Below are positions 1 through 21,994 of a DNA stretch of 64,000 bases, one piece after another. Origin of the DNA: Parapedobacter sp. (GTDB lineage: Bacteria > Bacteroidota > Bacteroidia > Sphingobacteriales > Sphingobacteriaceae); NCBI RefSeq assembly GCF_035556095.1, contig NZ_DATMFT010000016.1, forward strand, positions 53,508 to 117,507, in the 5' to 3' direction. Position 1 is the first letter of the stretch. Every line of letters begins with the position of its first letter. Below the pieces are notes generated by a model. It ran no database searches. It saw only the letters and a program-made list of their open reading frames with translations, and was not told the DNA's origin. A program made the translations under genes and the position numbers.

Positions 1-23
1 TCGACTGCGAGGCTCGATTGTAT

Positions 24-81
24 AAAAGTATTCAGTGAGTGCCAATCCGGCCTCACCCTATGGCTGTACAAGCAGCCTCAA
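24..81 (-). ncRNA. tracrRNA-like structured element, copy 1 of 3
   Basis: 58-nt element nearly identical to 1370..1427. On the minus strand it reads TTGAGGCTGCTTGTACAGCC-ATAGG-GTGAGGCCggattGGCaCTCAC-TGAATACTTTT, i.e. two hairpins plus a U-rich tail. It is followed (minus strand) by ATACAATC, then the window ends. Confidence 0.45.
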
Positions 82-145
82 ATAATGCTCCCAAATAGGT
101 TTGAAAAATTTGTGAATCGGAATCAATATTCATAAATTTGTTTCT

Positions 146-376
146 ATGGAATTAAATGTAAAATTAGGTTTCAATGAACTACTGTCTGCAATTAGAAGTT
201 TGCCGGATAGTCAATTGGCTTTACTGAAAAAGGAACTGGATAAACCAGTAACCTTAGCGGTTCAGCCAAATAAGGCTCTTAAAGAACTGTTGCTAAGCGG
301 GCCTGTTTTTGAAAAGGAACAACTTGCCTCTATTGCAGAAGCCCGAAAATCCATCAATCAAAGGCGGAATCCCTAA
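146..376 (+). CDS. small antitoxin-like protein (VapB-type partner of the PIN toxin)
   Basis: 76-aa ORF ending 5 nt before the PIN-domain ORF. The size and position are typical of a type II antitoxin. No motif was recognised directly. Confidence 0.5.
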   Translation: MELNVKLGFNELLSAIRSLPDSQLALLKKELDKPVTLAVQPNKALKELLLSGPVFEKEQLASIAEARKSINQRRNP

Positions 377-381
377 TCCTT

Positions 382-747
382 TTGGATACATCTATTCTTA
401 TTGATTATTTCCGGAAGAAAGACAAAACCAGAATCCGTCTATATGAATTAACCGATCATTACGAAGGGTTTGTTATTTCAGTTATCACTGAATTTGAGAT
501 TTACGTTGGTGCAAAAGATGACCAATTGCCGTTTTGGACACGTCTTTTAAAAGAGATTCCCGTGATTCCCCTTGATTCGTCAATTGCCGAAATTGCGGTA
601 GGCCTCAACAATCAATTGAAAGCATCCAAAAACCAAATTGCCATTGCAGACCTATTCATAGCCTCAACAGCGCTTTCTTTGGGAGTACCATGCGCTTCGC
701 TTAATCGCAAACATTTCAGCCGGTTAAAAGACCTCACTATCATTTAA
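382..747 (+). CDS. vapC: PIN-domain toxin, VapC family
   Basis: 121 aa. N-terminal xDTSILIDYF with a conserved Asp, TEFEIY with a Glu, and IAIADLFIASTA with an Asp give a PIN-like acidic residue pattern. TTG start as given in the ORF track. Confidence 0.75.
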   Translation: MDTSILIDYFRKKDKTRIRLYELTDHYEGFVISVITEFEIYVGAKDDQLPFWTRLLKEIPVIPLDSSIAEIAVGLNNQLKASKNQIAIADLFIASTALSLGVPCASLNRKHFSRLKDLTII

Positions 748-792
748 TGAACAACTCTTCCCTACCCTGAACAAGGTTAAAGACGGTACCCC

Positions 793-817
793 GTCTGATG
801 TCTGGCGTCTGATGTCT
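793..817. repeat. GTCTGAT-type heptad block 1, fused to a variant array repeat
   Basis: GTCTGAT GTCTGGC GTCTGAT GTCT with strict 7-nt period. It sits directly next to the variant repeat at 824..856. Confidence 0.7.
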
Positions 818-1033
818 AAAAAACATTATACCTTTCAGAATGGGGTCTGTAACACCAAGCTTTTTATAGGCTACAAAAGTATCAGTTGTATATACCTTTC
901 AGAATGTGGTCTGTAACACCGCCGAGGCAATTAGAATCCCGCTCCAGGTAGTTGTATATACCCAGCTGATAGGAACACTACCCAGTAGCCAGTTGTATAT
1001 ACCTTTCAAATGGCATAACTCGATCCGAGCCGC

Positions 1034-1065
1034 GTCTGATGTCTAGTGTCTGGCGTCTGATGTCT
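1034..1065. repeat. GTCTGAT-type heptad block 2
   Basis: GTCTGAT GTCTAGT GTCTGGC GTCTGAT GTCT. It is followed by the variant repeat at 1071..1103. Confidence 0.7.
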
Positions 1066-1239
1066 CAAAACACTATACCTTTCAAATTGGGGTAGTTAAC
1101 ACCCTCAGAAATTGTAGCCGCAAGACTCTTAGTGTTCTATATACCTTTCAAATTGGGGTCTGTAATACCTAAATAGAGCGACGCTTGACGTTTTTGTTGC
1201 ATGTACCTTTCCAAAATTGGGTGTCCACACCGCTCTTCT

Positions 1240-1270
1240 TCTGATGTCTAGTGTCTGACGTCTAATGTCT
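1240..1270. repeat. GTCTGAT-type heptad block 3
   Basis: TCTGAT GTCTAGT GTCTGAC GTCTAAT GTCT. It is followed by the variant partial repeat at 1276..1300. Confidence 0.65.
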
Positions 1271-1369
1271 CCAAACAATATACCTTTCAAATTCGGTAGC
1301 CAACAAAAAAATCCGCGCCCATCAACAAAATCCACGTCATCCGCATTCCAATAAGCTCGTAACAAATAA

Positions 1370-1427
1370 AAAAGTATTCAGTGAGTGCCAACCCGGCCTC
1401 ACCCTATGGCTGTACAAGCAGCCTCAA
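1370..1427 (-). ncRNA. tracrRNA-like structured element, copy 2 of 3
   Basis: Same 58-nt element as 24..81, with one loop difference. It separates the two parts of the repeat array. Confidence 0.5.
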
Positions 1428-1488
1428 TTATTAAATAACCTTTGTGCTCAATGATACCGTCTTACGGCTTTATAATTAATCTGGCGGG

Positions 1489-1747
1489 GTTGTATATATC
1501 TTTTTACTTTAGAAATTGCGTATGCCTTTCAAATTGGGGTCTGTAATACCACAATGCACTAAATCCAAAATACTTTATATGTTGTATATACCTTTCAAAT
1601 TTGAATCCGTAACACCTCCGCTCGTGACGATGTTGCGGTCGGATTAGCTGTATATACCTTCAAATTGAAATCTGTGACACCCTTTTGGCTATTCATATCA
1701 CAAACATCGCTGTTGTATATACCTTTCAAAAAGGGCTTTGGAACAAT
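1489..1747 (-). CRISPR. degenerate CRISPR-like array, proximal part (5 repeat units, about 4 guides)
   Basis: Repeat units at 1489-1500 (12 nt), 1518-1550, 1581-1616, 1648-1681 and 1712-1747 (only the GGTATATACAAC-side half is conserved). Spacers at 1459-1488 (putative), 1551-1580, 1617-1647 and 1682-1711. Further very degenerate units may lie at 1787-1858. Confidence 0.7.
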
Positions 1748-1871
1748 CGTTGACTTAATAAAAAACTCGCTTTCAACTGTATATCTTCCAGGATTAATGT
1801 CAATTTGATACCCGAAAGGTTGTAGATACTCCAGCCGAGAGACATCGTGTTGTGTATAAATCTTAAAATAA

Positions 1872-1930
1872 AAAAGTATTCAGTGAGTACTTTCTTAAGT
1901 CTCACCCTACGGCTGTACAAGCAGCCTCAA
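1872..1930 (-). ncRNA. tracrRNA-like structured element, copy 3 of 3 (nearest the Cas12f-like gene)
   Basis: Same flanks and hairpin 1 as copies 1 and 2. The inner stem of hairpin 2 changes from GCC/GGC to ACT/AGT, which is compensatory, and the single-nt bulge is kept. It lies 70 nt downstream of the Cas12f-like stop codon, between the gene and the array. Confidence 0.55.
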
Positions 1931-1950
1931 AAATTTCAAAGAACTATTTT

Positions 1951-1992
1951 AGTCGTAAGTCGTAAGTCATCAGTCGTAAGTCAACAGTCAAC
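1951..1992. repeat. AGTCGTA-type heptad block
   Basis: AGTCGTA AGTCGTA AGTCATC AGTCGTA AGTCAAC AGTCAAC: six 7-nt units. They start 8 nt past the stop codon of the minus-strand Cas12f-like gene. Confidence 0.7.
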
Positions 1993-1999
1993 TCGCCAC

Positions 2000-3094
2000 T
2001 TACTCCTCAATCACATTAATCCCCGCCTTCTTCGCCTTGTAGGCAATCTTTTCTTTCAACCCGTAGTAGCTCCAATTGCGGAGCAGGAACTCCTCCTCCT
2101 TCGCCACTTCTTCCTTTTGCTGCTGGTTCACCAATAGCAGCGTTCCCGCTTCGGACTTCAGGCACAGGTCGATCAGCCGCCTGCTGTACAGGTGCAGCCG
2201 GCTGTCCACATATTTCTTTTCCTTCGCATCCCAGTCGTCCAGGCTTTTCAGTTTGCGCTGGCGGCCCTTGCCAGACCGGTTGTACGTAGACCCCCGCTGC
2301 AGGCGGTGCCGTGCGGCCTGTATGGCCAGCCGCCGGTGCAGGAACTCCTCCTTGTTGCCGATCTGGAACTGTGCCTTGCCCACCTTCATCACGATGGGGT
2401 GTTCGATGGAGAGCGATGCCTCGGCGATGACCGAATCGTTCAGCTGATGCGCATCGCGCTCCATCTCAAAGGCCGCCAGTAAGTACAGCTTACCCTTGTC
2501 GATTTTCAGCGAACTGGCGCAGAGTTTCAACGTACCCGCGATGTTGCGCTGTATCAGCACGCGCTTGTCCGTTTTGTCCTTGCCGAGGTAGGTCTTGAAC
2601 GGGATTTTGAACAACGTAAACCGGAATTCGCGGTGCTTCTCGTCGGCCACGAATTTCAGCGACTTGCCCGAAAAGGGTAGCGGAATATTGCGCTTGTAGT
2701 TGCGCAGCGATTTCTCCCCCTTCCAGTAGGCGGTACGCTCGGTATTGTACACGCTGGTCAATGAATTATTCAGGTTGGAAAAAATTTCAGAAGGCATCTT
2801 ACCAAGCAGCTTACTGGACAGTACGCGGTAGGTGGTATTCATCCGCGAGGTGTTCAGGATGCCCTCCTCATCCTTGGCGCGGTCGGCCAGCTTCACCTTC
2901 ACCTCGTCGGTAAAGTAAATCAGATCTTTCACCCGATCCTGCACATACAGGTTCGTGAAAATGAGGTTGGCCGCCTGGAAAGCCAGGAACTGCCATTCAT
3001 ACAGCTGCTTGTAGTGGGCATCTTTTTGCGCTTTGTCTTCGCAATCCACATACACCTGTATTTTCCGCGTCAGGATGATGGTTTTCTTTTCCAT
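2000..3094 (-). CDS. miniature Cas12f-like protein, predicted nuclease-dead and C-terminally truncated (dCas12f-like)
   Basis: 364 aa. The segments TIILTRKIQVYV, NIPLPFSGKS..FKIPF, VIAEASLSIEHPIV, GTLLLVNQQQK and LLRNWSYYGLKEKIAYKAKKAGINVIEE are collinear with my recollection of Un1Cas12f1 (TITKTLKLRIV; NFPIPL..IKIPF; IIGGIDVGVKSPLV; GTVQMENLESM; RLRGFWPYAEMQNKIEFKLKQYGIEIRKV). The RuvC-I Asp and RuvC-II Glu positions are non-acidic. The ORF ends before the Zn-finger/RuvC-III region. It is adjacent to the repeat array and the tracr-like RNA. Confidence 0.75.
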   Translation of the reverse strand: MEKKTIILTRKIQVYVDCEDKAQKDAHYKQLYEWQFLAFQAANLIFTNLYVQDRVKDLIYFTDEVKVKLADRAKDEEGILNTSRMNTTYRVLSSKLLGKMPSEIFSNLNNSLTSVYNTERTAYWKGEKSLRNYKRNIPLPFSGKSLKFVADEKHREFRFTLFKIPFKTYLGKDKTDKRVLIQRNIAGTLKLCASSLKIDKGKLYLLAAFEMERDAHQLNDSVIAEASLSIEHPIVMKVGKAQFQIGNKEEFLHRRLAIQAARHRLQRGSTYNRSGKGRQRKLKSLDDWDAKEKKYVDSRLHLYSRRLIDLCLKSEAGTLLLVNQQQKEEVAKEEEFLLRNWSYYGLKEKIAYKAKKAGINVIEE

Positions 3095-3097
3095 GGT

Positions 3098-3916
3098 TTA
3101 GGCCGATTGTTTCGCTTTATTGATGACCGCATAGGCCTGCACGAAGAGCGACTTCACCCGTGTGTCGTCCAGTTGCAGCGCCGCGGCGATTTCCTCAAAG
3201 GAATACTGCAGGTCGTACCGCATGGCCAGCACCTGCGCCTGCTCTTCGGTGAGCATGCCTTCGGCGATGAGTGGTTTGGTGCGGGTGGCGCTATCCAACT
3301 TGGTCGTGTCCGCGAGGGCAGCTTTCAGGTTGGCAATGCATTGCTCCACGCGTTGGGCAACCTCGTAATCCGAGATGCCGCCGAGGTGGTAGGCTATCCG
3401 TTCGTAGTTAAAGCTGTACCGCAGGCACAGCCGAAGAAATAGCTGCTGCTGGTCGGTCAGGTTGGGCAACAGTCGGTTGACCTGCGCCAGCTGCCGTTGT
3501 TTTTCTGCTTCCAGTTGTTCGAGATATACGGCGTCCTCCTCGGCTTCGTCCTCCAGTTCGTTACCCAGCATAAATTCCTGGAAATCTTCGATGCCATCCA
3601 GCCGCAGCATGCTACGGTGGAAACGGTTGAGGCTCTTCCGGTAGTAGGCCATGCCCGCTTCGCGGAGTTGCTGGCCGAGGAACTCGTGCAGGTGGGCTAC
3701 ATCGCGTATGACGTCGCGCATGAGCCACAGGCGGAGAAATCCCTCCTGCGCAATGGTATTGCCCACCATATCGTCCTTAACGAACCGCTCGGCCCGCCAT
3801 GCGTAGTGGTCGTAATGGGCGCGATAGAAATAATTCAGTCCGGTTTCGTCGCCCGTCTTGAACCGATGGAATGCCTCGGTCGCATTTTTTCGTGTTTGGC
3901 GATTGGTTTTCAACAT
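3098..3916 (-). CDS. ECF-type sigma-70 family factor with an extra C-terminal sigma4-like HTH
   Basis: 272 aa. Region 2-like NTIAQEGFLRLWLMR. Region 4-like LTDQQQLFLRLCLRYSFNYERIAYHLGGISDYEVAQRVEQCIANLK. A second similar HTH reads LTEEQAQVLAMRYDLQYSFEEIAAALQLDDTRVKSLFVQA. The stop codon is 3 nt upstream of the Cas12f-like start. Confidence 0.8.
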   Translation of the reverse strand: MLKTNRQTRKNATEAFHRFKTGDETGLNYFYRAHYDHYAWRAERFVKDDMVGNTIAQEGFLRLWLMRDVIRDVAHLHEFLGQQLREAGMAYYRKSLNRFHRSMLRLDGIEDFQEFMLGNELEDEAEEDAVYLEQLEAEKQRQLAQVNRLLPNLTDQQQLFLRLCLRYSFNYERIAYHLGGISDYEVAQRVEQCIANLKAALADTTKLDSATRTKPLIAEGMLTEEQAQVLAMRYDLQYSFEEIAAALQLDDTRVKSLFVQAYAVINKAKQSA

Positions 3917-4227
3917 AATCCGGTTCTTGGTTTAAAAATTTTGAAATAGATATCTCCCTAACAACAATGAGTCGCTATTTAGGGACTTAGGCTATCCGCT
4001 GTCTCTGGGAGAACGTGGGATGTTGGCGTGGGCGGATGCTATTCGGGCGAGCACTTTACGGTGGCCAACAGGCTCCGGAAGTGACGGTGCGTTCTTGATG
4101 TGTAGTCTGGTTGCTTTTTCACGATCTTGTATAATTTGGTCCTCTTTGGTGAAACAAAGGTATGTGTTTTATTTTTATTAAACAAATATGTTTAGTGTGA
4201 ATTTCAAACATTTCCCTTGTTTGCCGA

Positions 4228-4452
4228 ATGGCAATAGATATTCAAACATTCAAAACCCAGTTGGGCCAGCGTATCCGGGTGCTTAGGGAACGCCGTGGAC
4301 TTACCCAGATGGAGCTTGGGGCATTGATGGATAAAGATTTCCAGGCAATCAGCCGGATGGAAAAGGGGCGGGTCAATCCGTCGGCTTATCAAGTGTATGT
4401 GCTGGCGGGAGCGCTCGGCGTGCCTATCGAGGAGTTTTTTGATATGAAGTAA
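4228..4452 (+). CDS. XRE-family helix-turn-helix transcriptional regulator
   Basis: 74 aa. LGQRIRVLRERRGLTQMELGALM...ISRMEKGRVNPS is a typical Cro/C1 HTH. It is divergent from the sigma/Cas12f-like operon. Confidence 0.8.
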   Translation: MAIDIQTFKTQLGQRIRVLRERRGLTQMELGALMDKDFQAISRMEKGRVNPSAYQVYVLAGALGVPIEEFFDMK

Positions 4453-4548
4453 ACCCATTTGCACCGTAACTAAATTTGGCGTACCTTTGCGGCCGTTAAT
4501 TATTTTTTTATTGTTTCATTAAGTTCACGCTTTAATATTATTCAAGTA

Positions 4549-4827
4549 ATGTATTTAAGTAAAGAGTACAAAACGGGCATTTTCGCTGAATTTGCAGGAA
4601 ATGCAACCAACACCGGTTCCGCGGAAGGACAGGTGGCGTTATTTACCAAACGTATTGCGCACCTCACGGAGCACCTGAAATCGAATCGCAAAGATTTCGC
4701 AACCCAGCGTTCATTGCAGAAGCTGGTCGGTAAACGCCGGGCGTTGTTGAAATACCTTTTCCATAAGGACATCGCACGCTACCGTGCCATCATCAAGGCA
4801 TTAGGTCTGCGCGACATCATCAAATAA
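4549..4827 (+). CDS. rpsO: 30S ribosomal protein S15
   Basis: 92 aa. TGSAEGQVALFTKRIAHLTEHLKSNRKDFATQRSL..LVGKRRALLKYL..DIARYRAIIKALGLR matches the S15 pattern. A TAaaTTTG box lies upstream near 4473. Confidence 0.9.
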   Translation: MYLSKEYKTGIFAEFAGNATNTGSAEGQVALFTKRIAHLTEHLKSNRKDFATQRSLQKLVGKRRALLKYLFHKDIARYRAIIKALGLRDIIK

Positions 4828-4850
4828 TTGCAAGTAGCGTTTTCAATAGA

Positions 4851-4883
4851 AAAGCCATCCGCCAACCAGCAGATGGCTTTTTT
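4851..4883 (+). terminator. intrinsic terminator after rpsO
   Basis: AAAGCCATC - 12-nt loop - GATGGCTTT followed by TTT. Confidence 0.7.
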
Positions 4884-5049
4884 GATGCCCAAGACAGCGC
4901 AGGTTATGTGACGAGACGTGTTACCTTTTGGGTTTATCAGGCATTTGCCAACGGGAAATTGCCACTTTTTCCATTCGAATGCAACGGCTAACTAGGTGTG
5001 GAGCCGGGGTCGCCGGTGTTGACATACACAAAAAAGTGACTCACTTCAA

Positions 5050-6681: not shown

Positions 6682-7584
6682 ATGACCGATCGTATAAAGA
6701 CGTATGGATTACCACCGGGAGGTGAAGTCCTCCACGATTTTCAAATCTATGAGGTAAAGGGTGGAGAAATAGATAATAAGCATTATCCACATAAAACCGA
6801 TCGGCCGCACCGGCATAGCTATTATGAAGTATGCGTTTTTATCGATGACGGTGGTAAACACGAGATTGATTTTGTGACTTATTCAATCCAATCCAATAGT
6901 GTCCATTTTCTTTCCCCGGGGCAGGTGCACCGTATTTTTAGAAATGAAGATTACCACGGTTACCTGATTGTTTTTTCCAGTGAATTTTTTCCATTGGGGT
7001 CAACGCGGCAGGAAGATCCACTCTTTTATTTCCCGTTTTTCAATAACCCGACCATGCTGCCCATCTTGGGTTTAGACGAAAGCTCTTTCGAAGAGATCTT
7101 ACTAATTGTCCGTCAAATGGAGAAAGAGAGTCGCCTCAAACAGCAGTCGCATAGTGAGATTTTGAGAACCTATCTGCAGTTGCTGCTTTTAAAATGCAAG
7201 CGACATTATATGTGGAAATTTGCGGAAAAGCAAAAAATGAATACGCCCGATTTTTCGCAAGTCCAGCAGTTCAATATGCTTGTTGAGAAAAAGTTCACGG
7301 AGCATCTCCTGATTCAAGATTACGCAGAAATGCTGGGTACATCGCCCGCGATCCTCAATAGGTCCGTAAAAAAAATAATCGGTAAAACAGCCGCGGAGAT
7401 CATCGTCGACAGGCTTATCTTACAAGCCAAACGTTTGTTGATTTATACCGATCTTTCCAACAAGGAAATTGCTTTCAGCTTAAACTATACAGACCCTTCC
7501 TATTTTACACGTACGTTTAAAAAGAAGACGGGCAAGAGCCCCTCCCAATTCAGAAAGGAGCTAAACGAAAAGTACCAGCATTAA
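6682..7584 (+). CDS. AraC-family transcriptional regulator (cupin sensor + HTH)
   Basis: 300 aa. The C-terminal IQDYAEMLGTSPAILNRSVKK...AFSLNYTDPSYFTRTFKKKTGKSPSQFR is an AraC double HTH. Confidence 0.85.
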   Translation: MTDRIKTYGLPPGGEVLHDFQIYEVKGGEIDNKHYPHKTDRPHRHSYYEVCVFIDDGGKHEIDFVTYSIQSNSVHFLSPGQVHRIFRNEDYHGYLIVFSSEFFPLGSTRQEDPLFYFPFFNNPTMLPILGLDESSFEEILLIVRQMEKESRLKQQSHSEILRTYLQLLLLKCKRHYMWKFAEKQKMNTPDFSQVQQFNMLVEKKFTEHLLIQDYAEMLGTSPAILNRSVKKIIGKTAAEIIVDRLILQAKRLLIYTDLSNKEIAFSLNYTDPSYFTRTFKKKTGKSPSQFRKELNEKYQH

Positions 7585-7748
7585 TATAAAAAGTGCATAG
7601 TCGACTTAACGGAGAGCGGTAGATTTGAATTCTATTCGGTAAACTGATGGTCGACCCACCAATTATAACATGATCGGGGTTGGTTTTCAAAAGTGCGCCG
7701 TTGGGTTTGTTTGGCAATAACTGATGTATAAACTTAATAACACAACAG

Positions 7749-9206
7749 ATGAACTTGATTAGATTTGCTTGTTTTCTCGCCGTTTTTTCCTTTTATGGCT
7801 TATCGGCTGTCGCACAACCCTACCCGTCATTAAATAACGAAAAGGTTGATGGGTATCAGGGTATTTGGTTCACGTTGGGGCAATTTTCGGAATATGGGGA
7901 TAAATATTCCGGCGGCTTGGGAACCTATACCGCCAAGCATATTCCACTGGCTATCTATTCGCCAACGGTAGACAAAACGTTCTTTGTTTACGGCGGGATC
8001 GTAAAAGACCGGGTGAGTGATGCTGATCCAACCGATCCCAAAGCAAAGGCGAAGGGTGATTACTTGGTCTGCATGATCGGAAGCTACGACCATAAAACGG
8101 GTACTGTTGAAAAACCTACAGTCGTATACGATAAAGGGGGTGTTTTCGATCCACACGATAATCCGTCCATAGCCATGGATTCAGATGGGTACATCTGGGT
8201 GTTTGTGAGCGGGAGAGGGCGCGGTCGGCCGGGATTTATCTATAAAAGCAGTTTGCCGAATTCCATCGATAAGTTTGACATGATTTCGGAACGGGAAATT
8301 ACCTATCCGCAACCCAAATATGTTGACGGGGAAGGCTTTTTGCACCTGTTTACCAAGTATCTTGGCGTTCGGTTGTTGTACTTTAGTACGAGTAAGGACG
8401 GTGTTGAGTGGACCGATGACAAACAACTTGCAGCCATAAAACGGCCGGAAGACAAGAATGGCGGCCACTATCAAATCAGCGGTCAACTCGGAGAGAAAAT
8501 CGTGTTTTTTTATAACTGGCATCCAAATGGAAACGTAGACCGCAGAACGAATATCTATTATCTGCAAACTACTGATTTCGGCCGTACGTGGACTACCGCG
8601 GAGGGCACGCCGGTGTCCACCCCCGTGACCGAGGTTGACAACCCTACCTTAGTCAGGGAATTCTTCTCAAAGGAAGAAAATGTATATATCAAGGACGTTG
8701 CCTTTGACAAGAATGGCAATCCGGCGGCACTATACCTTTCGGGCGCTGGGCACCAACCCGGGCCCCAAAACGGAATGCGGGAATGGCAGGTAATCCATTG
8801 GACGGGAGAAAAGTGGGAAAATCACACCATAACGACTTCGGATCATAATTATGATACCGGTAGCTTATGGATTGATGGGGATAAATGGGTTGTGATAGCG
8901 CCCACCGAGAACACACCCCAGCAATGGGGCGGTGGCGGCGAGCTCGTGCTCTGGGAAAGCAAAGATAATGGCAAGACTTGGAAGTCGAAAAAGCAGATTA
9001 CCAAGAAAAGCGAGTTAAATCACAACTACGTGAGAAAAGTAGTGAATGGAAAAGATCCATTTAAATACTTTTGGGGTGATGGCGACCCCCATACCCACAG
9101 TGAATCCCATTTATATTTTGGCGATTCCAAAGGAAGGGTCTGGCAGTTGCCTTACACGATGGATGCAGATGACGTAAAGCCGGAAAAAGGGCTGCGAAAA
9201 AAATAA
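7749..9206 (+). CDS. secreted BNR_4-type beta-propeller protein (possible GH145/PL42-like), paralog of 28109..29611
   Basis: Signal peptide. YQGIWFTLGQ..YSGGLGTYTAKH..DKTFFVYGG and TNIYYLQTTDFGRTW are shared with the paralog. The family assignment is from memory. Confidence 0.55.
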   Translation: MNLIRFACFLAVFSFYGLSAVAQPYPSLNNEKVDGYQGIWFTLGQFSEYGDKYSGGLGTYTAKHIPLAIYSPTVDKTFFVYGGIVKDRVSDADPTDPKAKAKGDYLVCMIGSYDHKTGTVEKPTVVYDKGGVFDPHDNPSIAMDSDGYIWVFVSGRGRGRPGFIYKSSLPNSIDKFDMISEREITYPQPKYVDGEGFLHLFTKYLGVRLLYFSTSKDGVEWTDDKQLAAIKRPEDKNGGHYQISGQLGEKIVFFYNWHPNGNVDRRTNIYYLQTTDFGRTWTTAEGTPVSTPVTEVDNPTLVREFFSKEENVYIKDVAFDKNGNPAALYLSGAGHQPGPQNGMREWQVIHWTGEKWENHTITTSDHNYDTGSLWIDGDKWVVIAPTENTPQQWGGGGELVLWESKDNGKTWKSKKQITKKSELNHNYVRKVVNGKDPFKYFWGDGDPHTHSESHLYFGDSKGRVWQLPYTMDADDVKPEKGLRKK

Positions 9207-9239: not shown

Positions 9240-11936
9240 GTGGTGCATATACGGCTTTTTCTGGGTATAGCGGCGTTCTTCATCCTTGCTGGTTGCGGGG
9301 GACGGCATCCGGTTATTACAACCAATGATTTCGAGACCGCCGAAATCGGACCGTTTGTCGAGGAGGGGTTTCCTTTTATCACGGGGCCATTGAATTCCGA
9401 TAAACTAGGTCCGGGCTTCCCGAAACGTAACCGCTCCGCCAGGACATTGTCAATCAATCTTGGTGACAGTGCCTACGTGGGATTTGACATGGATTTACTC
9501 CGGTGGTCGGTGGCCTGGGATGGCGAATTCTTACCCATGGTAACCATGTCCCAAATTTCATATGACGACTTTTTCAATAAGGGGGATAAGATCCCGTCGA
9601 TCTTGGGTACGCCCAGGATAGCCACGGGTGAGTATGCGGGGTGGACTATTGACACGCCAAGCTTTTCGGACCCCAGGAATCCGTCCGGCAATGCAGACCC
9701 CCATCGATATGGGCCAATACCGGAACAGATCGGTAGGTGGAATGGCATCTATTTAAAAGGAGATGATGTTGGATTGTCCTATACGATAGGGACGACAAAC
9801 ATCATGGAGCACCCCAGCAGCATACGTTTTGGGGAAGAAACTGCCTTTTCAAGAACGTTCAAATTAGATGAACTGCAACGGGCATTGTATCTCAATGTCG
9901 CCGAGGTGGGGAGTGACTCATACACCGAGGCAACAGGCGCTGTTCTGTATATCTACCACGGAGAAGCCCGAGACACCGTTACGGTAATCGGGGTGGTAAC
10001 GAATCACGAGAAAGATTTGGCGCCGGCAATTGTGGATAACAAATACGTTACGGTGCTTTTCCCACGAGCCACTGATCCTTTGGAGGCCACCGTGCTGATG
10101 TGGAACGGTCCAGCAGAAAAGAAAGGTGCGTTCTTGGACATATTGAGCGAAGCTAAAACCAAGATGCCCGATTTCAGTCGCGGGGGACCGGCTTACTGGA
10201 AGGAGACCGTTTATACACAAGGAGCATTATCACCTGATACGGCTGCCTATGTTACCGATATCCTAACGCTTCCGCTACCCAATCCATGGAAGCGGAATGT
10301 ACGGGTGGCTGATGCGGCTTTTTTTGATGGCAAGCGTGCGGCGGTGGTTACTTTTTCCGGCGATGTTTGGGTGGTGGAAGGGATAGACAAGAGCTTGAAG
10401 CGACTGAAGTGGCGCCGGTTTGCTTCAGGGTTGTATGAGCCCATGAGCATCGACGTGGTGGACGGTGTGATTTACGTCTTTGGAAAAGAAGGTATTGTGC
10501 GGCTGCACGATCTGAACCGTGATGGGGTGGCCGATTTCTATGAAAATTTCTGCAACGGAATGGAGCAGTCGCTACATTCGCGTGAATGGGCAGCAGATAT
10601 GGTTTCCGCACCTGGCGGCGGTTTCTACATTGCAAAAGGGGGTATTGGTGGCTCTTCGCAGCGGGGTACCATCCTCAAGGTGTCGGCCGATGGGCGAGAG
10701 GTGGAGACCATTGCATCGGGGTTGAGAGGGCCATATATCGGTATCCATCCTACTAAAGGTATCCTGTCTGCTTCAGATCAACAAGGCAATTACGTGCCCT
10801 CTACACCGTTGTTGCTGGTGGATAAAGGCGACTACTTCGGTTTTCCCACTGCGCCTGAGCATCGTCAGGCACCCATCAAAACACCGCTGGCTTGGATTCC
10901 ACACCGTGTCGATCGTTCGGGTATCAGTCAGACATGGATTACAGGCGGAAAGATGGGACCGTTAGACGAGCAAATGATTCATTTTTCATTTGCCCGCCCA
11001 GGCTTGTTCAAGGTACTCATCGATACTACTTCAAGCACACTCCAGGGAGGTGTTTCGTATTTGCACGCAAACTACCCGGCGCCAACGCAAAAAGGAACGA
11101 TAAACCCGGCTGACGGCCAATTGTACATAACTGGATTTAATTTATGGGGCTCGAGTTCCAAAGGTGTAGCGGCATTTGTTCGCTTGCGATATACCGGCCT
11201 GCCATTTTATTTGCCTGAACGATTCAAGGCGGGCGAGCAGGGAATTGTCCTGCGATTCGGTGTAGCGCTGGATTCGACAGTAGCCATGAACCCGTTGAAT
11301 TTCCAGGTCAAAAGGTGGAATTACAAACGTACCAAGGAATATGGGTCGGGCCACTTCAAACTCGATGATACACCGGGAGAGGAATCGATGCCTGTATATG
11401 CATCATATATCTCTGCCGACCGTAAAGCAGTTTTGATTGTTGTGCCGGGTATGGAGGAGGTGATGCAAATGGAGGTGTTGTATAACCTACGGTCAACAGA
11501 TGGTGCTGCGTTGGAGGACGGTCTTTGGTTTACCGTGAACGAGGTGGACAAAATCAATTTGGCTAGGGAAGGGTTTCGCGGGCCCATCGATTTGTCGATA
11601 AACCGTGCTGCAAGTATTTCGGCGGAAACTGCCGAGGAGCGTCCGTCCCAAGAAAAAGGCGCTCAACTTTTCAGGGCAGTGGCATGTGCAGGTTGTCATT
11701 CCCCCGGTGTCGACACCGATGGGTTTTACGGCCCTCCGTTTAAGGATATATTCATGTCGGAGCGCCAGTTTGCAGACGGTACCTCGGGAATTGCCGACGA
11801 AGATTATATCCGCGAATCCATATTAACGCCTGCTAAAAAAATTGTAAAAGGATACGATGCCGAGATGCCTTCTTATTTAGGGATGCTCTCTGATAGCGAT
11901 ATCGAATCGCTTGTGTTATATATTAAATCTTTATAG
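9240..11936 (+). CDS. lipoprotein with beta-propeller dehydrogenase-like region and C-terminal c-type cytochrome domain
   Basis: 898 aa. LAGC lipobox at the N-terminus and a CAGCH haem-binding motif near the C-terminus, followed by an ESILTPAK..MP type cytochrome c tail. GVG start. Confidence 0.55.
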   Translation: MVHIRLFLGIAAFFILAGCGGRHPVITTNDFETAEIGPFVEEGFPFITGPLNSDKLGPGFPKRNRSARTLSINLGDSAYVGFDMDLLRWSVAWDGEFLPMVTMSQISYDDFFNKGDKIPSILGTPRIATGEYAGWTIDTPSFSDPRNPSGNADPHRYGPIPEQIGRWNGIYLKGDDVGLSYTIGTTNIMEHPSSIRFGEETAFSRTFKLDELQRALYLNVAEVGSDSYTEATGAVLYIYHGEARDTVTVIGVVTNHEKDLAPAIVDNKYVTVLFPRATDPLEATVLMWNGPAEKKGAFLDILSEAKTKMPDFSRGGPAYWKETVYTQGALSPDTAAYVTDILTLPLPNPWKRNVRVADAAFFDGKRAAVVTFSGDVWVVEGIDKSLKRLKWRRFASGLYEPMSIDVVDGVIYVFGKEGIVRLHDLNRDGVADFYENFCNGMEQSLHSREWAADMVSAPGGGFYIAKGGIGGSSQRGTILKVSADGREVETIASGLRGPYIGIHPTKGILSASDQQGNYVPSTPLLLVDKGDYFGFPTAPEHRQAPIKTPLAWIPHRVDRSGISQTWITGGKMGPLDEQMIHFSFARPGLFKVLIDTTSSTLQGGVSYLHANYPAPTQKGTINPADGQLYITGFNLWGSSSKGVAAFVRLRYTGLPFYLPERFKAGEQGIVLRFGVALDSTVAMNPLNFQVKRWNYKRTKEYGSGHFKLDDTPGEESMPVYASYISADRKAVLIVVPGMEEVMQMEVLYNLRSTDGAALEDGLWFTVNEVDKINLAREGFRGPIDLSINRAASISAETAEERPSQEKGAQLFRAVACAGCHSPGVDTDGFYGPPFKDIFMSERQFADGTSGIADEDYIRESILTPAKKIVKGYDAEMPSYLGMLSDSDIESLVLYIKSL

Positions 11937-11947
11937 TCGATAATCCG

Positions 11948-12916
11948 ATGGCACCCGTTCAACACTACCAACAGTTGTCGCGTAGAAACTTCATTAAGCA
12001 AGCCGCAGTTGCTGCTGCCGTGCTGCCTGTGGTATCGCCCGGTTTTTATCCAAAAAATAGGGCGGAAGGAGAAAAGGCATTGGAAGTGCATATTTTTTCA
12101 AAGTGCCTGCATTTTCTCGACTATGAGCACATGGCGGAGTTTGCCGCAAGGGTAGGTTTTGATGGGGTCGATCTCACCGTACGACCCGGCGGACATGTTG
12201 TGCCGGAAAAGGTAGCTGACGACTTGCCCAAAGCGATCGGCGAAATACAGCGAGCGGGTTTACAATCTACCATGATTGCTACTGCGATGGCAGATCCAGC
12301 GGATACCGTGGGACGTAACGTTTTGGAAGTGGCGGCGAGCCTTGGCATCTCTTTTTATAGGACAGACTATTTCCAATACCTAAAAGACAAGAGTATACCC
12401 GAATCGATCGGGTTTTTCCAAAAGCGAGCCAAGGAACTAAGCGAATTGAATAGCAGGCTAGCTATCGTAGGATGCTACCAGAATCACGCCGGGCTTATGA
12501 TGGGCGCCTCGTTGTGGGAACTATGGGATGTTTTGCAGCATGCGGACCACGACTACCTTGGGGTGCAATATGATGTCCGCCATGCAGTAGTAGAAGGTGG
12601 CAGGTCTTGGGTAAATGGCCTCAAGTTGATACAACCGCACATAAAGACGATTGTGGTCAAAGATTTTAAATGGGTTGAACAAGGAGGGCAATGGCGTTCG
12701 GTGGGCACACCAATTGGTGAAGGTATGGTTGATTTTAAATCGTATTTTCGGATGCTAAAGGACTTCAATATACAGGTTCCTGCGTCGTTGCATATCGAGT
12801 ATCCGTTGGGCGGGGTTGAATCGGGGGCAAAACAATTGAAAATCGAACCAGAAGAAGTATTTCGTGCGATGGAAAAGGACCTGTCAACGATTCGCAGGCT
12901 ATGGCTAGAAGCCTGA
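11948..12916 (+). CDS. Tat-exported xylose-isomerase-like TIM-barrel protein (sugar phosphate isomerase/epimerase family)
   Basis: SRRNFIKQAAVAAAV twin-arginine signal. The length and composition are those of the AP-endonuclease-2/xylose-isomerase-like fold. Confidence 0.6.
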   Translation: MAPVQHYQQLSRRNFIKQAAVAAAVLPVVSPGFYPKNRAEGEKALEVHIFSKCLHFLDYEHMAEFAARVGFDGVDLTVRPGGHVVPEKVADDLPKAIGEIQRAGLQSTMIATAMADPADTVGRNVLEVAASLGISFYRTDYFQYLKDKSIPESIGFFQKRAKELSELNSRLAIVGCYQNHAGLMMGASLWELWDVLQHADHDYLGVQYDVRHAVVEGGRSWVNGLKLIQPHIKTIVVKDFKWVEQGGQWRSVGTPIGEGMVDFKSYFRMLKDFNIQVPASLHIEYPLGGVESGAKQLKIEPEEVFRAMEKDLSTIRRLWLEA

Positions 12917-13083
12917 TGTAACCATCGCTACCCAGATTAATCACGTATTCCTACCATTGTAAACCCAACTGAACAAAAAGTACCAGCTTTAATCAAAAAA
13001 GTGCCTATCCCCATCCCCAAGGAAGGGTAAATTTGAACTCTATAAGCTGATTATTAACATTTAACACAAAAAAAGTTTATTGA

Positions 13084-14466
13084 ATGATTAGGATTGATTT
13101 TAACCTAATGCCGAATGATTTGGCAGGTCAGTTACGGCGGTTTTGGGAGCTTTCGGGTGAAAAAATCACGGCTATCGAGAACGAGTATGAGCTCGGAAAG
13201 GGTTCGCCCGTGTTTACGGTGGGCGGTAAATATACCACCCGCGGTTGGACGGAATGGACACAGGGGTTCCAGTTCGGGTCGTCTATCCTGCAATTTGACG
13301 CCACGGGTGACAATGAATTTCTTGAAAAAGGGCGGGAGAAGACGTTGGCACTCATGGCTCCGCATGTGAGCCATATCGGTGTGCACGACCATGGGTTCAA
13401 TAACGTCAGCACCTATGGTAATCTACTTCGGCTGATGGTGGAAGGGAAAACACCGTTCAACGAATGGGAGAAGAATTTTTATGAGCTCGCATTGAAAGTG
13501 TCTGGCGCTGTTCAGGCCAGTAGATGGACATCAATAAAAAACGGCGGCTTCATTTATTCCTTCAATGGTCCACATTCCCTTTTCGTCGATACGATGCGTA
13601 CCGTTAGGATTTTGATGCTCAGTCATAAACTGGGGCATGTGCTGCAACAGGAAAATGACGAGAAAGTAAACCTGTTGGTCCGTGGGTTGCAGCATATGCG
13701 AGCCACGGCAGATTATTCCGTCTTTTACGGTGAAGGGCGAGATAGCTATGATATTTGGGGTCGAACGGCTCATGAAAGTATTTTCAATACCAATGACGGG
13801 AATTTCCGCAGTCCCAATGCACAGCAGGGTTATACTGGTTTTTCTACCTGGACAAGGGGGCTTGCTTGGGCAATGGTCGGATTCGCTGAACAGTTGGAGT
13901 TCCTCCATACCGTTTCCGCCCAGGATCTGGCAGCTTATGGGAACAGAGAAGAGATTGAGAAATTCATGCTCAGGGCTGCCGAGGCAACATGTGATTTTTA
14001 TATTGAACACACGCCTACAGACGGTATCCCGTATTGGGATACGGGCGCTCCTAACTTGCATAAGCTTGGCGATTACCTTTCCAAGCCTGCCGATCCGTAC
14101 AACGACTTTGAACCCGTAGATAGCTCTGCCGCTGCTATTGGTGCGCAGGGACTGTTAAGGCTGGGGAATTACTTGAAGGAGAAAGGCGCTGAGGAAAAAG
14201 GCACTAAGTACTGGCAGGCAGGATTGACGGTTTTGCGTTCGTTGCTGGCTGAGCCCTATTTGAGCACGGATGCAGCTCATCAGGGTATTATTCTCCATTC
14301 CATTTATCATCAACCGAATGGATGGGACAATATCCCCGCGGGTCAGCAGATAGCCTGCGGTGAATCGAGCATGTGGGGCGATTACCATGCCCGTGAGGCC
14401 GCCCTTTACGTGCAGCGGATCATCGATAATAAACCCTATTATGCATTTTATAATGGTGTGTTATGA
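13084..14466 (+). CDS. GH88-like (alpha/alpha)6 hydrolase, possible unsaturated glucuronyl hydrolase
   Basis: 460 aa. TRGWTEWTQGFQFG and HDHGFNN resemble GH88 signature segments, as I recall them. Confidence 0.45.
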   Translation: MIRIDFNLMPNDLAGQLRRFWELSGEKITAIENEYELGKGSPVFTVGGKYTTRGWTEWTQGFQFGSSILQFDATGDNEFLEKGREKTLALMAPHVSHIGVHDHGFNNVSTYGNLLRLMVEGKTPFNEWEKNFYELALKVSGAVQASRWTSIKNGGFIYSFNGPHSLFVDTMRTVRILMLSHKLGHVLQQENDEKVNLLVRGLQHMRATADYSVFYGEGRDSYDIWGRTAHESIFNTNDGNFRSPNAQQGYTGFSTWTRGLAWAMVGFAEQLEFLHTVSAQDLAAYGNREEIEKFMLRAAEATCDFYIEHTPTDGIPYWDTGAPNLHKLGDYLSKPADPYNDFEPVDSSAAAIGAQGLLRLGNYLKEKGAEEKGTKYWQAGLTVLRSLLAEPYLSTDAAHQGIILHSIYHQPNGWDNIPAGQQIACGESSMWGDYHAREAALYVQRIIDNKPYYAFYNGVL

Positions 14467-21700: not shown

Positions 21701-21994
21701 CTCTACGCATTGTGGCCCCGGTTAACTGCCACCACCAATACAAACAATACCCAACGCAGTACGTGGTTTCAGCGCGACGGCAGCTTCCTACGGTTGAAGC
21801 AGGCTGAAATCGGATATACGCTGCCCCAGGGCCTCACTGATCGGGTGTGGCTGAATAGCTTGCGTTTTTATGTGAGCGGGACGAACCTGCTATCGTGGAG
21901 TAAGTTTAAACTATGGGACGTGGAGATGGCGGACAATGGCTTGGGCTACCCCGTACAGCGCGTTGTCAATTTGGGTTTACATGTTTCATTATAA
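18740..21994 (+). CDS. SusC/RagA-family TonB-dependent outer-membrane transporter
   Basis: 1084 aa. Carboxypeptidase-regulatory-like VRGTIRDSTGSLLTGVSIHVKN, a plug (DATATALYGARGANGVILITTK), and a C-terminal beta-barrel ending in ..NLGLHVSL. Confidence 0.9.
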   Translation: MNSYVDLKGRTRLPLVNRVLRNLVVTTVAVVAAMPYVSAGMFSPADVTLHRLETSVRKPNSMLQDTEVRGTIRDSTGSLLTGVSIHVKNRTSIGTTTDLNGRYLLSVPAGSTLTFSMVGFETQEIAVGNQEVIDVVLVESSSMLDDVVVTAFGGAVKRTDMIGAITSVKPSDLKVPSSNLTTALAGRVAGMIAYQRSGEPGMDNADFFIRGVTTFGYKKDPLILIDNLEVTTTELARLQPDDVASFSIMKDATATALYGARGANGVILITTKEGTEGKVKINVRLENSISAPTRNVELADPVTYMELHNEAVKTRDPLGEQPYSQGKIDNTKAGTNAIAYPATDWRKELFKDYTMNQRFNLNLSGGGSVARYYVAGAVTKDNGVLQVDPRNNFNSNIDLTSYNLRSNVNVNLTKSTELIIRMNGNFDDYTGPIAGGKAMYQMVMRTNPVLFSAFYPPGEDYQHVTHIMFGNYEEGNYLNPYAEMVKGYRDYSRSYVLAQLELKQDLAFLTEGLQFRALMNTNRTSFFDVNRAYSPFYYSLNGYNRRADTYSLSLINEDGGREYLDYNEGPKEVSSIFYLESALSYNRTFGEKHGLSGMLVYIMQERLSANAGSLQLSLPYRNIGLSGRTTYAYDSRYFFEFNFGYNGSERFYKNNRFGFFPSAGLAWTISNEKFFEPITSTVNNLRVRATYGLVGNDAIGRPEDRFFYLSNVDMEAGGGTFGRDNGYSRSGVNVTRYANSDITWEQAEKMNVALEVGLFKKLDITADFFKEHRTNILMERSHIPSTMGLGTVNVMANVGEATGRGVDLSANYSHSFINGLWLQGMGNFTFAQSAFKVYEEPEYSESWQSRVGYSVNQEWGYIAERLFVDEHEVANSPRQNFGEYMAGDIKYRDVNRDGQITELDMVPIGFPTMPEIVYGFGLSAGWKNLDFSVFFQGLARESFRIGVAQTAPFLSHRYSPSELPGITLQNQLLKAYADDHWSEDNRNLYALWPRLTATTNTNNTQRSTWFQRDGSFLRLKQAEIGYTLPQGLTDRVWLNSLRFYVSGTNLLSWSKFKLWDVEMADNGLGYPVQRVVNLGLHVSL

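Follow-up and report, generated by a model that had tools for sequence, protein, structure and literature searches.

Hoffmann et al. (Nature 2026, PMC13472631) describe dCas12f-sigmaE systems from Flagellimonas taeanensis and 15 others, with structures 9n9c and 9n9q, in which a nuclease-dead Cas12f (dCas12f) is paired with a sigma factor. As they report, the guide-loaded dCas12f recruits the sigma factor and RNA polymerase, and transcription starts ~46 bp from a TAM (target-adjacent motif) that is a 5'-G. The single guide RNAs (gRNAs) reported there are 85-105 nt long, lie directly downstream of dcas12f on the same strand and carry a 3' guide of 14-16 nt. Their paper (with Extended Data Figs 3d and 6f) also describes Sphingobacterium rpoE-dcas12f loci in which full-length gRNAs occur with "multiple discontinuous" or "vestigial" clustered regularly interspaced short palindromic repeat (CRISPR) arrays, with array spacers predicted to match sites near susCD. 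Here we analyze a stretch of 64,000 nucleotides from Parapedobacter sp. (contig NZ_DATMFT010000016.1; the whole stretch is referred to as the window), which carries irregular repeats next to a Cas12f-like gene.

Two further bodies of work provide a framework for comparison. The single guide RNA scaffold of Un1Cas12f1 contains GGGCTGCTTGCATCAGCC and ends GGAATGCAAC directly before the guide, and the engineered ge4.1 scaffold retains only 10 nt of the repeat, GGAAUGCAAC (bioRxiv 10.1101/2022.10.20.513037). For the evolution of such guides, Altae-Tran et al. 2023 (PNAS, PMC10691335) proposed that an array was minimised to a "half DR" keeping the 3' end of the direct repeat (DR) and fused with the trans-activating CRISPR RNA (tracrRNA) to give an omega-RNA, with omega-RNA-like arrays appearing later.

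A dCas12f-sigmaE locus in Parapedobacter

The irregular repeats are the guide-RNA region of this already published type of system, in which a nuclease-dead Cas12f and a sigma factor act in transcription at RNA-specified sites. Our best explanation, which we consider likely when all of its parts are taken together, is that positions 1-1990 of the window and ~750 nt past its left edge form the guide-RNA-encoding part of a Parapedobacter hth / rpoE-dcas12f locus, on the minus strand downstream of dcas12f. Protein identity, strand, unit anatomy, the covariation of scaffold loop and repeat handle, and a partial conservation of spacers across species are shown below; beyond this we infer that these RNAs are expressed and processed, that the array and stub units are used with a scaffold supplied in trans, and that their guides have targets. 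Three genes identify the locus:

2000-3094, minus strand: dcas12f, nuclease-dead Cas12f, 364 amino acids (PDB 9n9c_A "Nuclease-deactivated Cas12f", E=4.3e-128, residues 2-362)
3098-3916, minus strand: rpoE, extracytoplasmic function (ECF) type sigma factor with a C-terminal extension, 272 amino acids (PDB 9n9q_C "RpoE", E=7.5e-37, residues 16-266; Pfam Sigma70_r4, 4e-9)
4228-4452, plus strand: hth, Xre-type helix-turn-helix protein, divergent from the operon (Pfam HTH_3, 8.5e-12; HTH_31, 1e-11)

The sigma factor gene lies directly upstream of dcas12f in one operon, separated by 3 nt. The nearest protein relatives are found in Parapedobacter species (94-97% identity), and related loci L002 (P. 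soli) and L005 carry an hth gene at the equivalent position. A Pfam search with the dCas12f open reading frame (ORF) at 2000-3094 gave no match. When aligned with the active Cas12f chain 9nzo_B, the DLG motif of that chain falls on SLS here, and the active chain (506 amino acids) extends ~90 residues beyond the end of the dCas12f match. With RuvC-I substituted and the C-terminus absent, the protein is not the nuclease-active effector of a type V-F system. With a nuclease-dead Cas12f as the effector and a sigma factor as its partner, guides would serve to direct transcription and not cleavage.

The locus agrees with the described dCas12f-sigmaE systems in gene set and order (hth, divergent rpoE-dcas12f, guide RNAs), in having clearly homologous proteins, including an inactivated and shortened Cas12f and an ECF sigma factor with an extra C-terminal domain, and, at the sequence level, in a scaffold followed by a guide at its 3' end, downstream of dcas12f and on its strand. 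In contrast to the characterised systems, which have one or a few tandem single guides and no CRISPR array, it contains five discontinuous sub-arrays of repeat-spacer and stub-spacer units. In the published examples that were put to the test, a single fixed chimeric guide is used. The Sphingobacterium loci are closer, as they come from the same family, Sphingobacteriaceae, and are reported to combine full-length gRNAs with interspersed arrays whose repeats resemble the gRNA scaffold; they differ in genus, and the text of the paper mentions neither 12-nt stubs nor the scaffold-repeat covariation described below. Since the system is known and array-bearing variants are in print, the present locus adds another member and is not a new system.

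The properties of the effector also bear on whether the repeats could belong to a working immune array, that is, an ordinary type V-F CRISPR supplied by adaptation, served by a nuclease-active Cas12f elsewhere in the genome and merely adjoining rpoE-dcas12f. The sole effector at the locus lacks both the RuvC residues and the C-terminus, and no cas1, cas2 or cas4 was present among eight larger ORFs tested, out to position 21994, although missing adaptation genes are usual for the Cas12f branch (PMC10691335). We regard an immune array as very unlikely, and return below to the spacers, which point in both directions.

Repeat units, scaffold and their pairing

Units were defined as sequences related to GGTGTTACAGACCCCAATTTGAAAGGTATATACAAC, read on the minus strand. 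Positions 1-1990 hold 13 of them, all on that strand: ten full-length (1747->1712, 1681->1647, 1616->1581, 1550->1515, 1305->1273, 1232->1196, 1169->1134, 1103->1068, 920->885 and 856->821), one 19-nt partial (1010->992) and two 12-nt stubs, 962->951 (GGTATATACAAC) and 1500->1489 (GATATATACAAC). Every unit named in the original prediction, which was made from the letters of the sequence, was recovered at its position and on the minus strand, and the stubs and the partial unit are real. With up to one mismatch, the 12-mer handle GGTATATACAAC has eight matches in the window, where 0.23 are expected (0 of 100 shuffles), always on the minus strand between 885 and 1723, and the 16-mer GAAAGGTATATACAAC with up to three mismatches occurs nine times against 0.49 expected, which establishes the repeats and stubs as genuine. 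The guide-RNA region is arranged as follows:

1951-1990, minus strand: 7-nt periodic tract (nnnGACT, six times) between the dcas12f stop codon and E3 (TRF period 7, 4.6 copies, score 50)
1849-1928, minus strand: scaffold copy E3 with stub handle UUUAUACACAAC; hairpin 1 GGCUG-CUUGUA-CAGCC, hairpin 2 GGGUGAG...CUCACU, tail GAAUACUUUUUU; candidate single guide RNA scaffold, 80 nt
1835-1848, minus strand: candidate guide of E3, 14 nt, ACGAUGUCUCUCGG, directly after the handle
1787-1829, minus strand: stub-only units, handle 1829->1819 (GUAUCUACAAC) with its spacer, then degenerate handle 1798->1787
1489-1747, minus strand: sub-array with units 1747->1712, 1681->1647, 1616->1581 and 1550->1515 (3' end degenerate) and stub 1500->1489
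1364-1425, minus strand: scaffold copy E2, without an adjoining pseudoknot-competent handle
1240-1308, minus strand: terminal-type unit 1305->1273 (..GGUAUAUUGUUU) with AGACnnn heptad tract 1270->1240 (repeat family D4; TRF)
1034-1232, minus strand: sub-array with units 1232->1196 and 1169->1134, terminal unit 1103->1068 and heptad tract 1065->1034
787-1010, minus strand: sub-array with 1010->992 (19 nt), 962->951 (12 nt), full unit 920->885, terminal unit 856->821 and heptad tract 817->787
1-79, minus strand: scaffold copy E1 (79->17, ending ..ACUUUUAUACAAU) with fused guide CGAGCCUCGCAGUCGA (16->1), cut by the window edge

Array units combine a 36-nt repeat with a 26-30-nt spacer, and most neighbours lie 62-66 nt apart. 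Although 10 of 13 units are full-length, as in a regular type V-F array, the array is split into sub-arrays with truncated or degenerate units. Three scaffold copies serve as heads of the five sub-arrays, four of which lie in the window and one past its left edge. The latter was found on a metagenome contig (L088, Ga0182745_1028964) that is 100% identical to the window over 2341 nt (window 1-2341) and adds 1237 nt past the left edge, where E1 heads a further sub-array of ~9-10 units. Repeats are present in the originally predicted extent of 824-1858, but the array region continues to window position 1 and ~750 nt more in the identical contig. Two small ORFs over the array (1129-1365 and 1726-1920, both minus strand) were taken as spurious and had no Pfam match, and an Rfam search of positions 1-5000 with E-values up to 1 returned nothing in the array region.

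The original prediction held that the repeats are conserved only at one end. In an alignment of the 13 units, agreement with the consensus among the ten that do not close a sub-array is 0.61 for the 5' 15 nt, 0.82 for the middle and 0.93 for the last 12 nt. A larger census of 152 units from 11 Parapedobacter loci, collected by the central 9-mer so as to favour neither end, gives 0.65 for the 5' 17 nt, 0.96 for the core TTTGAAAGG and 0.76 for the 3' 10 nt, while most spacers differ. The 5' half is indeed the least conserved part, but conservation peaks from the centre to the 3' end, the best-kept part is the centre TTTGAAAGGTAT, and the asymmetry between the ends is present but modest. Moreover, four units keep the 5' half and middle and lack the 3' end (1305->1273, 1103->1068, 856->821 and 1550->1515), the first three of which close a sub-array (..GGTATAnTGTTT). 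Unit 1747->1712, described as keeping the 3' 21 nt, lies where it was predicted and retains 10 of 15 positions of the 5' part as well. The pattern of truncation is more informative: the first unit behind a scaffold has the middle and 3' end intact and a different 5' half, and ATACAAC is missing from last units, in which the 5' half and middle persist. Both patterns fit a single reading direction. In the mechanism that we propose, the 5' half would be dispensable in the mature guide and so free to drift or be replaced, and the last repeat of a sub-array, having no guide behind it, would lose its 3' end.

The sub-array heads share a scaffold element of ~63 nt, here called E (GAGGCTGCTTGTACAGCC.TAGGGTGAG-loop-CTCACTGAATAC, then a T-run), with a predicted fold of two hairpins. 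The exact pattern is found three times in the window (starting at 1928, 1425 and 79 on the minus strand) against 0.00 expected. These copies are 62-80 nt long, 91-97% identical and placed 503 and 1346 nt apart without tandem arrangement. A relaxed search over 84 related loci gave 196 matches, without exception on the strand of dcas12f and mostly as the first feature after this gene; in Parapedobacter, E heads each sub-array. Hairpin 2 shows compensatory changes, and covariation supports both hairpins. As in omega-RNA-like arrays, the whole scaffold (>60 bp) is repeated and the scaffold/guide boundary is sharp. E3 begins 72 nt past the dcas12f stop codon and continues directly into TTTATACACAAC, then ACGATGTCTCTCGG; E1 continues directly into TATACAAT, then CGAGCCTCGCAGTCGA. 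Judged by sequence, E3 and E1 look like single guides in the published format, with scaffolds of 80 and 63 nt that resemble the ~76 nt scaffold of F. taeanensis in format and length. E2, which is 97% identical to the first E of P. soli, is a candidate stand-alone tracr-like RNA or a decayed copy. Of the mini-units that had been predicted with low confidence, 1858->1849 and 1829->1819 are real, since E3 runs into the former and, for both, the handle and the spacer behind it are found again in P. deserti and in P. composti; for 1798->1787 the counterpart is weak.

The key link between scaffold and repeat is a complementarity between the loop of E hairpin 1, (C)UUGUA, and the guide-adjacent repeat handle, UACAA(C). 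With no handles called beforehand, TTGTA loops were followed by TACAA in 80%, TTGCA with TGCAA in 94% and CTGTA with TACAG in 80%, compared with 0-39% across classes. Over 39 short-form scaffolds the loop-handle helix is 96.4% paired, pair 12-34 being U-A in 23, C-G in 10 and U-G in 5. None of 500 shuffles reached the observed loop-handle score, and slid registers pair in 26-54%. Several loop/handle classes coexist inside single loci, which argues against a purely phylogenetic correlation. The complementarity and covariation together make the last 5-6 nt of the repeat a structural partner of the scaffold, and the 12-nt stub retains them. A pseudoknot of this kind accounts for the conservation of the repeat 3' end, for the 12-nt stubs and for reading on the minus strand.

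The comparison with Un1Cas12f1/Cas14a1 (type V-F1) leads to the same architecture. Both have a repeat whose 3' end, ..GCAAC or ..ACAAC, lies against the guide and pairs with the loop of a tracrRNA hairpin; the Un1Cas12f1 repeat ends ..AUGCAAC at the guide, and its tracrRNA has a hairpin, GGGCUG-CUUGCAU-CAGCC, that is almost identical to E hairpin 1. The resemblance to the Un1Cas12f repeat that the original prediction had pointed out is borne out by the published scaffold end, and the proposed type V order of repeat 3' part followed by guide is likewise supported. The minimal ge4.1 scaffold parallels the natural 12-nt stubs. Un1Cas12f1 differs in being an active nuclease that acts in immunity, and its ge3.0 scaffold is far longer than the ~63-nt E, with a 3' part (..TTCTGCACAA) that, as read from the sequence, is complementary to the repeat 5' end (GTTGCAGAA); E has no clear anti-repeat of this kind.

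The position of the core in this fold is less clearly defined. The core UUUGAAAGGUAU is a conserved scaffold segment that may pair with the U-rich E tail: it forms part of long-form scaffolds in other genera, and in L005 two copies of E carry two compensatory changes, read from the sequence, in a stem that joins the E tail to the core. Applied to 19 long-form scaffolds, RNAalifold returned hairpins 1 and 2 only and no partner for the core. Pairing of the E tail with the repeat 5' end (z = -1.6) was considered and dropped, as the 5' halves change in P. composti and L005 while the tail is unchanged.

Reading of the array on the minus strand, co-directional with the Cas12f-like gene, was part of the original prediction and is well supported. 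Across 11 loci, handles occur 125 times in sense and 3 times in antisense, and E 23 times in sense and 0 in antisense. Scans for sigma-70 promoters and terminators performed no better than on shuffled sequences and are uninformative for Bacteroidota. The converse, that the array is read on the plus strand with the GTCT heptad tracts as leaders and GTTGTATATACC as the repeat 5' end, could draw on the tract that precedes each repeat in a leader-like manner in that orientation (family D4), and on one plus-strand terminator-like site at 1219-1235, a type of site that is no commoner here than in shuffles. We consider it extremely unlikely, as E, handles and dcas12f lie on one strand in every locus, the pseudoknot covariation works on the dcas12f strand only, first and last units are truncated as a minus-strand reading predicts, and a related array (L006, ~7700-7740) is closed by a strong terminator on the dcas12f strand. 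The gRNAs published in PMC13472631 are also on the dcas12f strand.

With minus-strand reading, the region would mix three guide formats: E fused to a short handle and guide (E3, E1), 36-nt repeat units, and units shrunk to the last 12-19 nt. All three retain the guide-proximal part of the repeat. E would be the shortened equivalent of a type V-F tracrRNA, and the final UACAA(C) of the repeat would form a pseudoknot with the (C)UUGUA loop of hairpin 1, as in Cas12f/TnpB guide RNAs. By analogy with the Flagellimonas system, dCas12f loaded with a guide would attach to DNA and bring in the sigma factor together with RNA polymerase, and transcription, independent of a promoter, would begin ~46 bp downstream of the target.

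Guides, spacers and alternative readings

Recurrence of the window's guides and spacers in other species was scored as mismatches in 20 positions. The spacer behind 1647 has a counterpart in P. koreensis (L015) at 2/20 mismatches, and spacer CTTTCGGGTATCAAATTGAC after handle 1829->1819 recurs behind an equal handle in P. deserti (L011, 2/20) and P. composti (L012, 3/20). Sequences related to the candidate guide of E3 stand behind ..TATACAAC/T handles, at 4/20 mismatches in P. composti (L012) and at 5/20 in P. deserti (L011), and the sequence downstream of E2, GAGCTTATTGGAA, recurs in Parapedobacter sp. 2B3 (L009, 1/20). In all, about four of the window's guides or spacers have counterparts in other species, at 1-5 mismatches per 20 positions, and heptad modules recur as well, including the terminal-unit module 1240-1308, which is conserved in P. 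soli, P. flavus and sp. 2B3. Seven other window spacers, including those behind the stubs ending at 951 and 1489, did not recur in the species compared.

The region was also compared with that of P. soli, whose dCas12f is 97% identical. As far as the end of E, the two operons align collinearly, with 86% nucleotide identity. Past E the array region is not collinear, and matches are limited to repeats, E copies and modules. Even so, a 134-nt array segment of the L088 extension is 95.5% identical to P. soli, compared with 86% for the operon, and the extension includes two units with spacers 95% identical to that species. The guide set is therefore partly conserved and partly fluid, given that some spacers recur between species, seven do not, and the P. 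soli array is not collinear. This modifies the suggestion that the array is kept for a fixed guide set: the recurring guides, spacers and heptad modules speak for it, but the array of P. soli and the long regular arrays in relatives do not.

The same spacers complete the assessment of an immune array. Its format of 36-nt repeats and ~30-nt spacers, the palindromic GTTGT...ACAAC form of the repeat in relatives, long regular arrays in relatives (up to 14 units), among them P. luteus and P. deserti, and the restriction of most spacers to one species would all suit immunity; however, immune arrays do not usually share spacers between species, as is the case for some spacers here, and the dCas12f system's scaffold E stands at the head of each sub-array. 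Four spacers searched as exact 24-mers found no match in 2.9 million viral contigs, which is weak evidence as exact matches were required, and a metagenome scan with spacers returned a single match, the same array and locus (L088).

Guide sequences also show a motif that extends beyond this genus. Within the spacer 1133->1105 (minus strand), which follows unit 1169->1134, lies AAGAGTCTTGCGGCTACAA, a family-wide guide/target motif, here offset by 3 nt from the handle. GAGTCTYG-related sequences start the guide after handles in many Sphingobacterium gRNAs and also lie upstream of rpoE in Pedobacter loci (~locus position 3530-3990). The family-wide form AGAGTCTYG..GCTRCAA was found within the window only inside the array. 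In related loci, guide targets beyond chance were not found, and the guides of the L088 extension had no match in the window. A SusC-like TonB-dependent receptor gene (CarbopepD_reg_2 and Plug domains) lies at 18740-21994 on the plus strand, at a distance of 15 kb from the locus, and its upstream region gave no guide match. A separate observation concerns P. soli (L002), at 8490-8635 and 11400-13560. A TCCTTGC/TCCTTACG periodic tract is located there just past the 3' end of hth, of which a second, decayed copy is present at ~13560-13700. The related TCCTTAATCTTTGCTCC stands directly after the handle in many array units, both of P. soli and of this strain's extension, and this similarity may be guide-target mimicry within the locus.

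Several results weigh against the region being a working source of guides as proposed above. In the covariation test, the handle pattern N[AG]CA[AG][CT] itself fixes two of the five pairs. The predicted energy of the E-repeat duplex is no better than with shuffled repeats (z = +0.5), and a long anti-repeat was not found in the window, so that E in trans would rest on a ~5 bp pseudoknot and weak pairing of the E tail with the core. In the systems tested in PMC13472631, no tracrRNA-like species was detected. Neither the stubs 962->951 and 1500->1489 nor the spacers behind them have conserved counterparts in the other species compared, and these stubs could be deletion products. Finally, the targets expected for such systems are guide-matching sites with a 5' TAM upstream of a gene (susCD, a two-component system or rpoE), and the 64-kb window gave no convincing target when searched with 16-mers allowing up to four mismatches, with exact 11-mers, or with the criteria of PMC13472631, a perfect 6-nt seed and at least 11/14 matches; the best seed-perfect guide matches reached 11-12/14, which is the chance level.

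Many of these observations would also be expected if only the E-fused guides (E3, E1) work and the repeat units and stubs are decaying leftovers of the ancestral type V-F array, similar to one another through recent duplication and gene conversion and not through selection. The missing target in the window, the E-repeat complementarity, which is not strong, and the unconserved spacers behind internal stubs are consistent with decay, as are the irregular spacing, the several degenerate or truncated units and the duplication of whole modules within the locus (families D4 and D5). PMC13472631 itself uses the term "vestigial" for such arrays and found no tracrRNA; it also reports array spacers matching sites near susCD in Sphingobacterium sp. 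DR205, which speaks against leftovers. Had decay been uniform, values of 0.96 for the core and 0.76-0.93 for the handle would not persist over 152 units in 11 species while 5' halves and spacers diverge, and some array spacers are conserved as well as, or better than, the coding operon. We take the conserved core, the spacers and guides shared between species, the 134-nt segment shared with P. soli and the compensatory changes in L005 as signs of selection. We therefore judge a vestigial array to be unlikely, and favour the reading of the whole region as guide-RNA-encoding.

A more specific form of the favoured reading is that in array-bearing Parapedobacter loci the system may run as a dual-RNA multiplexed activator. 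E would act in trans as a minimal tracrRNA, joined by the ~5 bp pseudoknot and tail-core pairing to array CRISPR RNAs, including those of units with a 12-nt repeat, and the heptad tracts would punctuate the sub-arrays. We put this forward tentatively, as a possibility that is rather doubtful in its full form. As for the tracts themselves, 7-nt-period AGACnnn tracts follow every terminal repeat in the window (787-817, 1034-1065 and 1240-1270, minus strand), and the nnnGACT tract at 1951-1990 precedes E3. Related species have other heptads at equivalent places, TGAAnnn in L005 (~7335-7385 and ~7615-7665), AAGCnnn in L003 (~7370-7400) and GCYnTTA in L010 (~6822-6845), and a stub or partial repeat often stands behind a heptad tract in the window and in L005. 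The tract as a self-target of heptad "guides" was considered and rejected, as AGACnnn against AGTCnnn gives two seed mismatches and the wrong orientation.

Neighbouring features and implications

Some other features lie in or beside the locus. One interrupts the sub-arrays on the opposite strand:

146-747, plus strand: toxin-antitoxin pair, a 76-amino-acid ORF without Pfam match and a PIN-domain toxin (Pfam PIN, 2e-13)

This pair is probably a passenger. P. soli has a homologous 76-amino-acid ORF at the equivalent place (L002 13063-13293), and a second homologous antitoxin ORF lies after the last sub-array on L088 (~190-420). On the other side of the operon, a weak match to the ribosomal S15 leader (RF00114, 21.9 bits, under the gathering score, E=0.067) at 4491-4605 on the plus strand overlaps the start of ORF 4549-4827, sited where P. 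soli carries its S15 gene, and is an ordinary feature. The conserved hth-rpoE spacer contains a handle-like AAATTATACAAG at 4126-4137 (minus strand), with the equivalent ATTATAGCACAAC in P. soli (around L002 8960), and this sequence may be part of the hth-associated non-coding RNA described in PMC13472631.

Reduced repeats with fixed guides have parallels outside the Cas12f group. In type V-K CRISPR-associated transposons, a "delocalized" CRISPR RNA reportedly has a short or degenerate repeat remnant that keeps the part needed by the effector, with a fixed host-directed guide, and the outcome is transposon homing. The autoregulation of Cas9 by a long-form tracrRNA, said to have been described by Workman in 2021, likewise uses a degenerate repeat remnant with a fixed host-directed guide, the outcome being repression. 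Neither of these is known to recruit a sigma factor, and their effectors differ from the one found here.

With respect to the scenario of Altae-Tran et al. 2023, every stage is represented at this locus: full DRs as well as half DRs (1010->992), stubs, the tracr-like E both fused to a handle and free of one, and duplicates of E. The locus departs from that account in one respect: the authors state that CRISPR association was lost in the RpoE clade, with repeats of >60 bp (PMC10691335), whereas arrays of 36-nt repeats persist in every Parapedobacter locus examined here. In this locus and in every Parapedobacter relative examined, tracr-like scaffolds, full repeats, half repeats and 12-nt stubs stand side by side, a living record of the proposed path from CRISPR array to fused single guide.

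To the published description of these systems the present analysis adds the pairing rule between scaffold loop and handle, stub units that are conserved between species (mini-units 1858->1849 and 1829->1819) and the heptad tracts. The loop-handle covariation provides a simple rule for calling guide boundaries and strand from sequence alone in such loci. The heptad tracts are species-specific and lie after terminal repeats and before E3; if they are punctuation, they would signal a start, a stop or processing. Provided that array and stub units are loaded, the locus would be a natural multiplexed gene-activation array, and the smallest natural handle accepted by a Cas12f-type protein would be ~12 nt, matching engineered Un1Cas12f. 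Should the dual-RNA activator prove true, one locus could switch on a whole set of promoterless targets.

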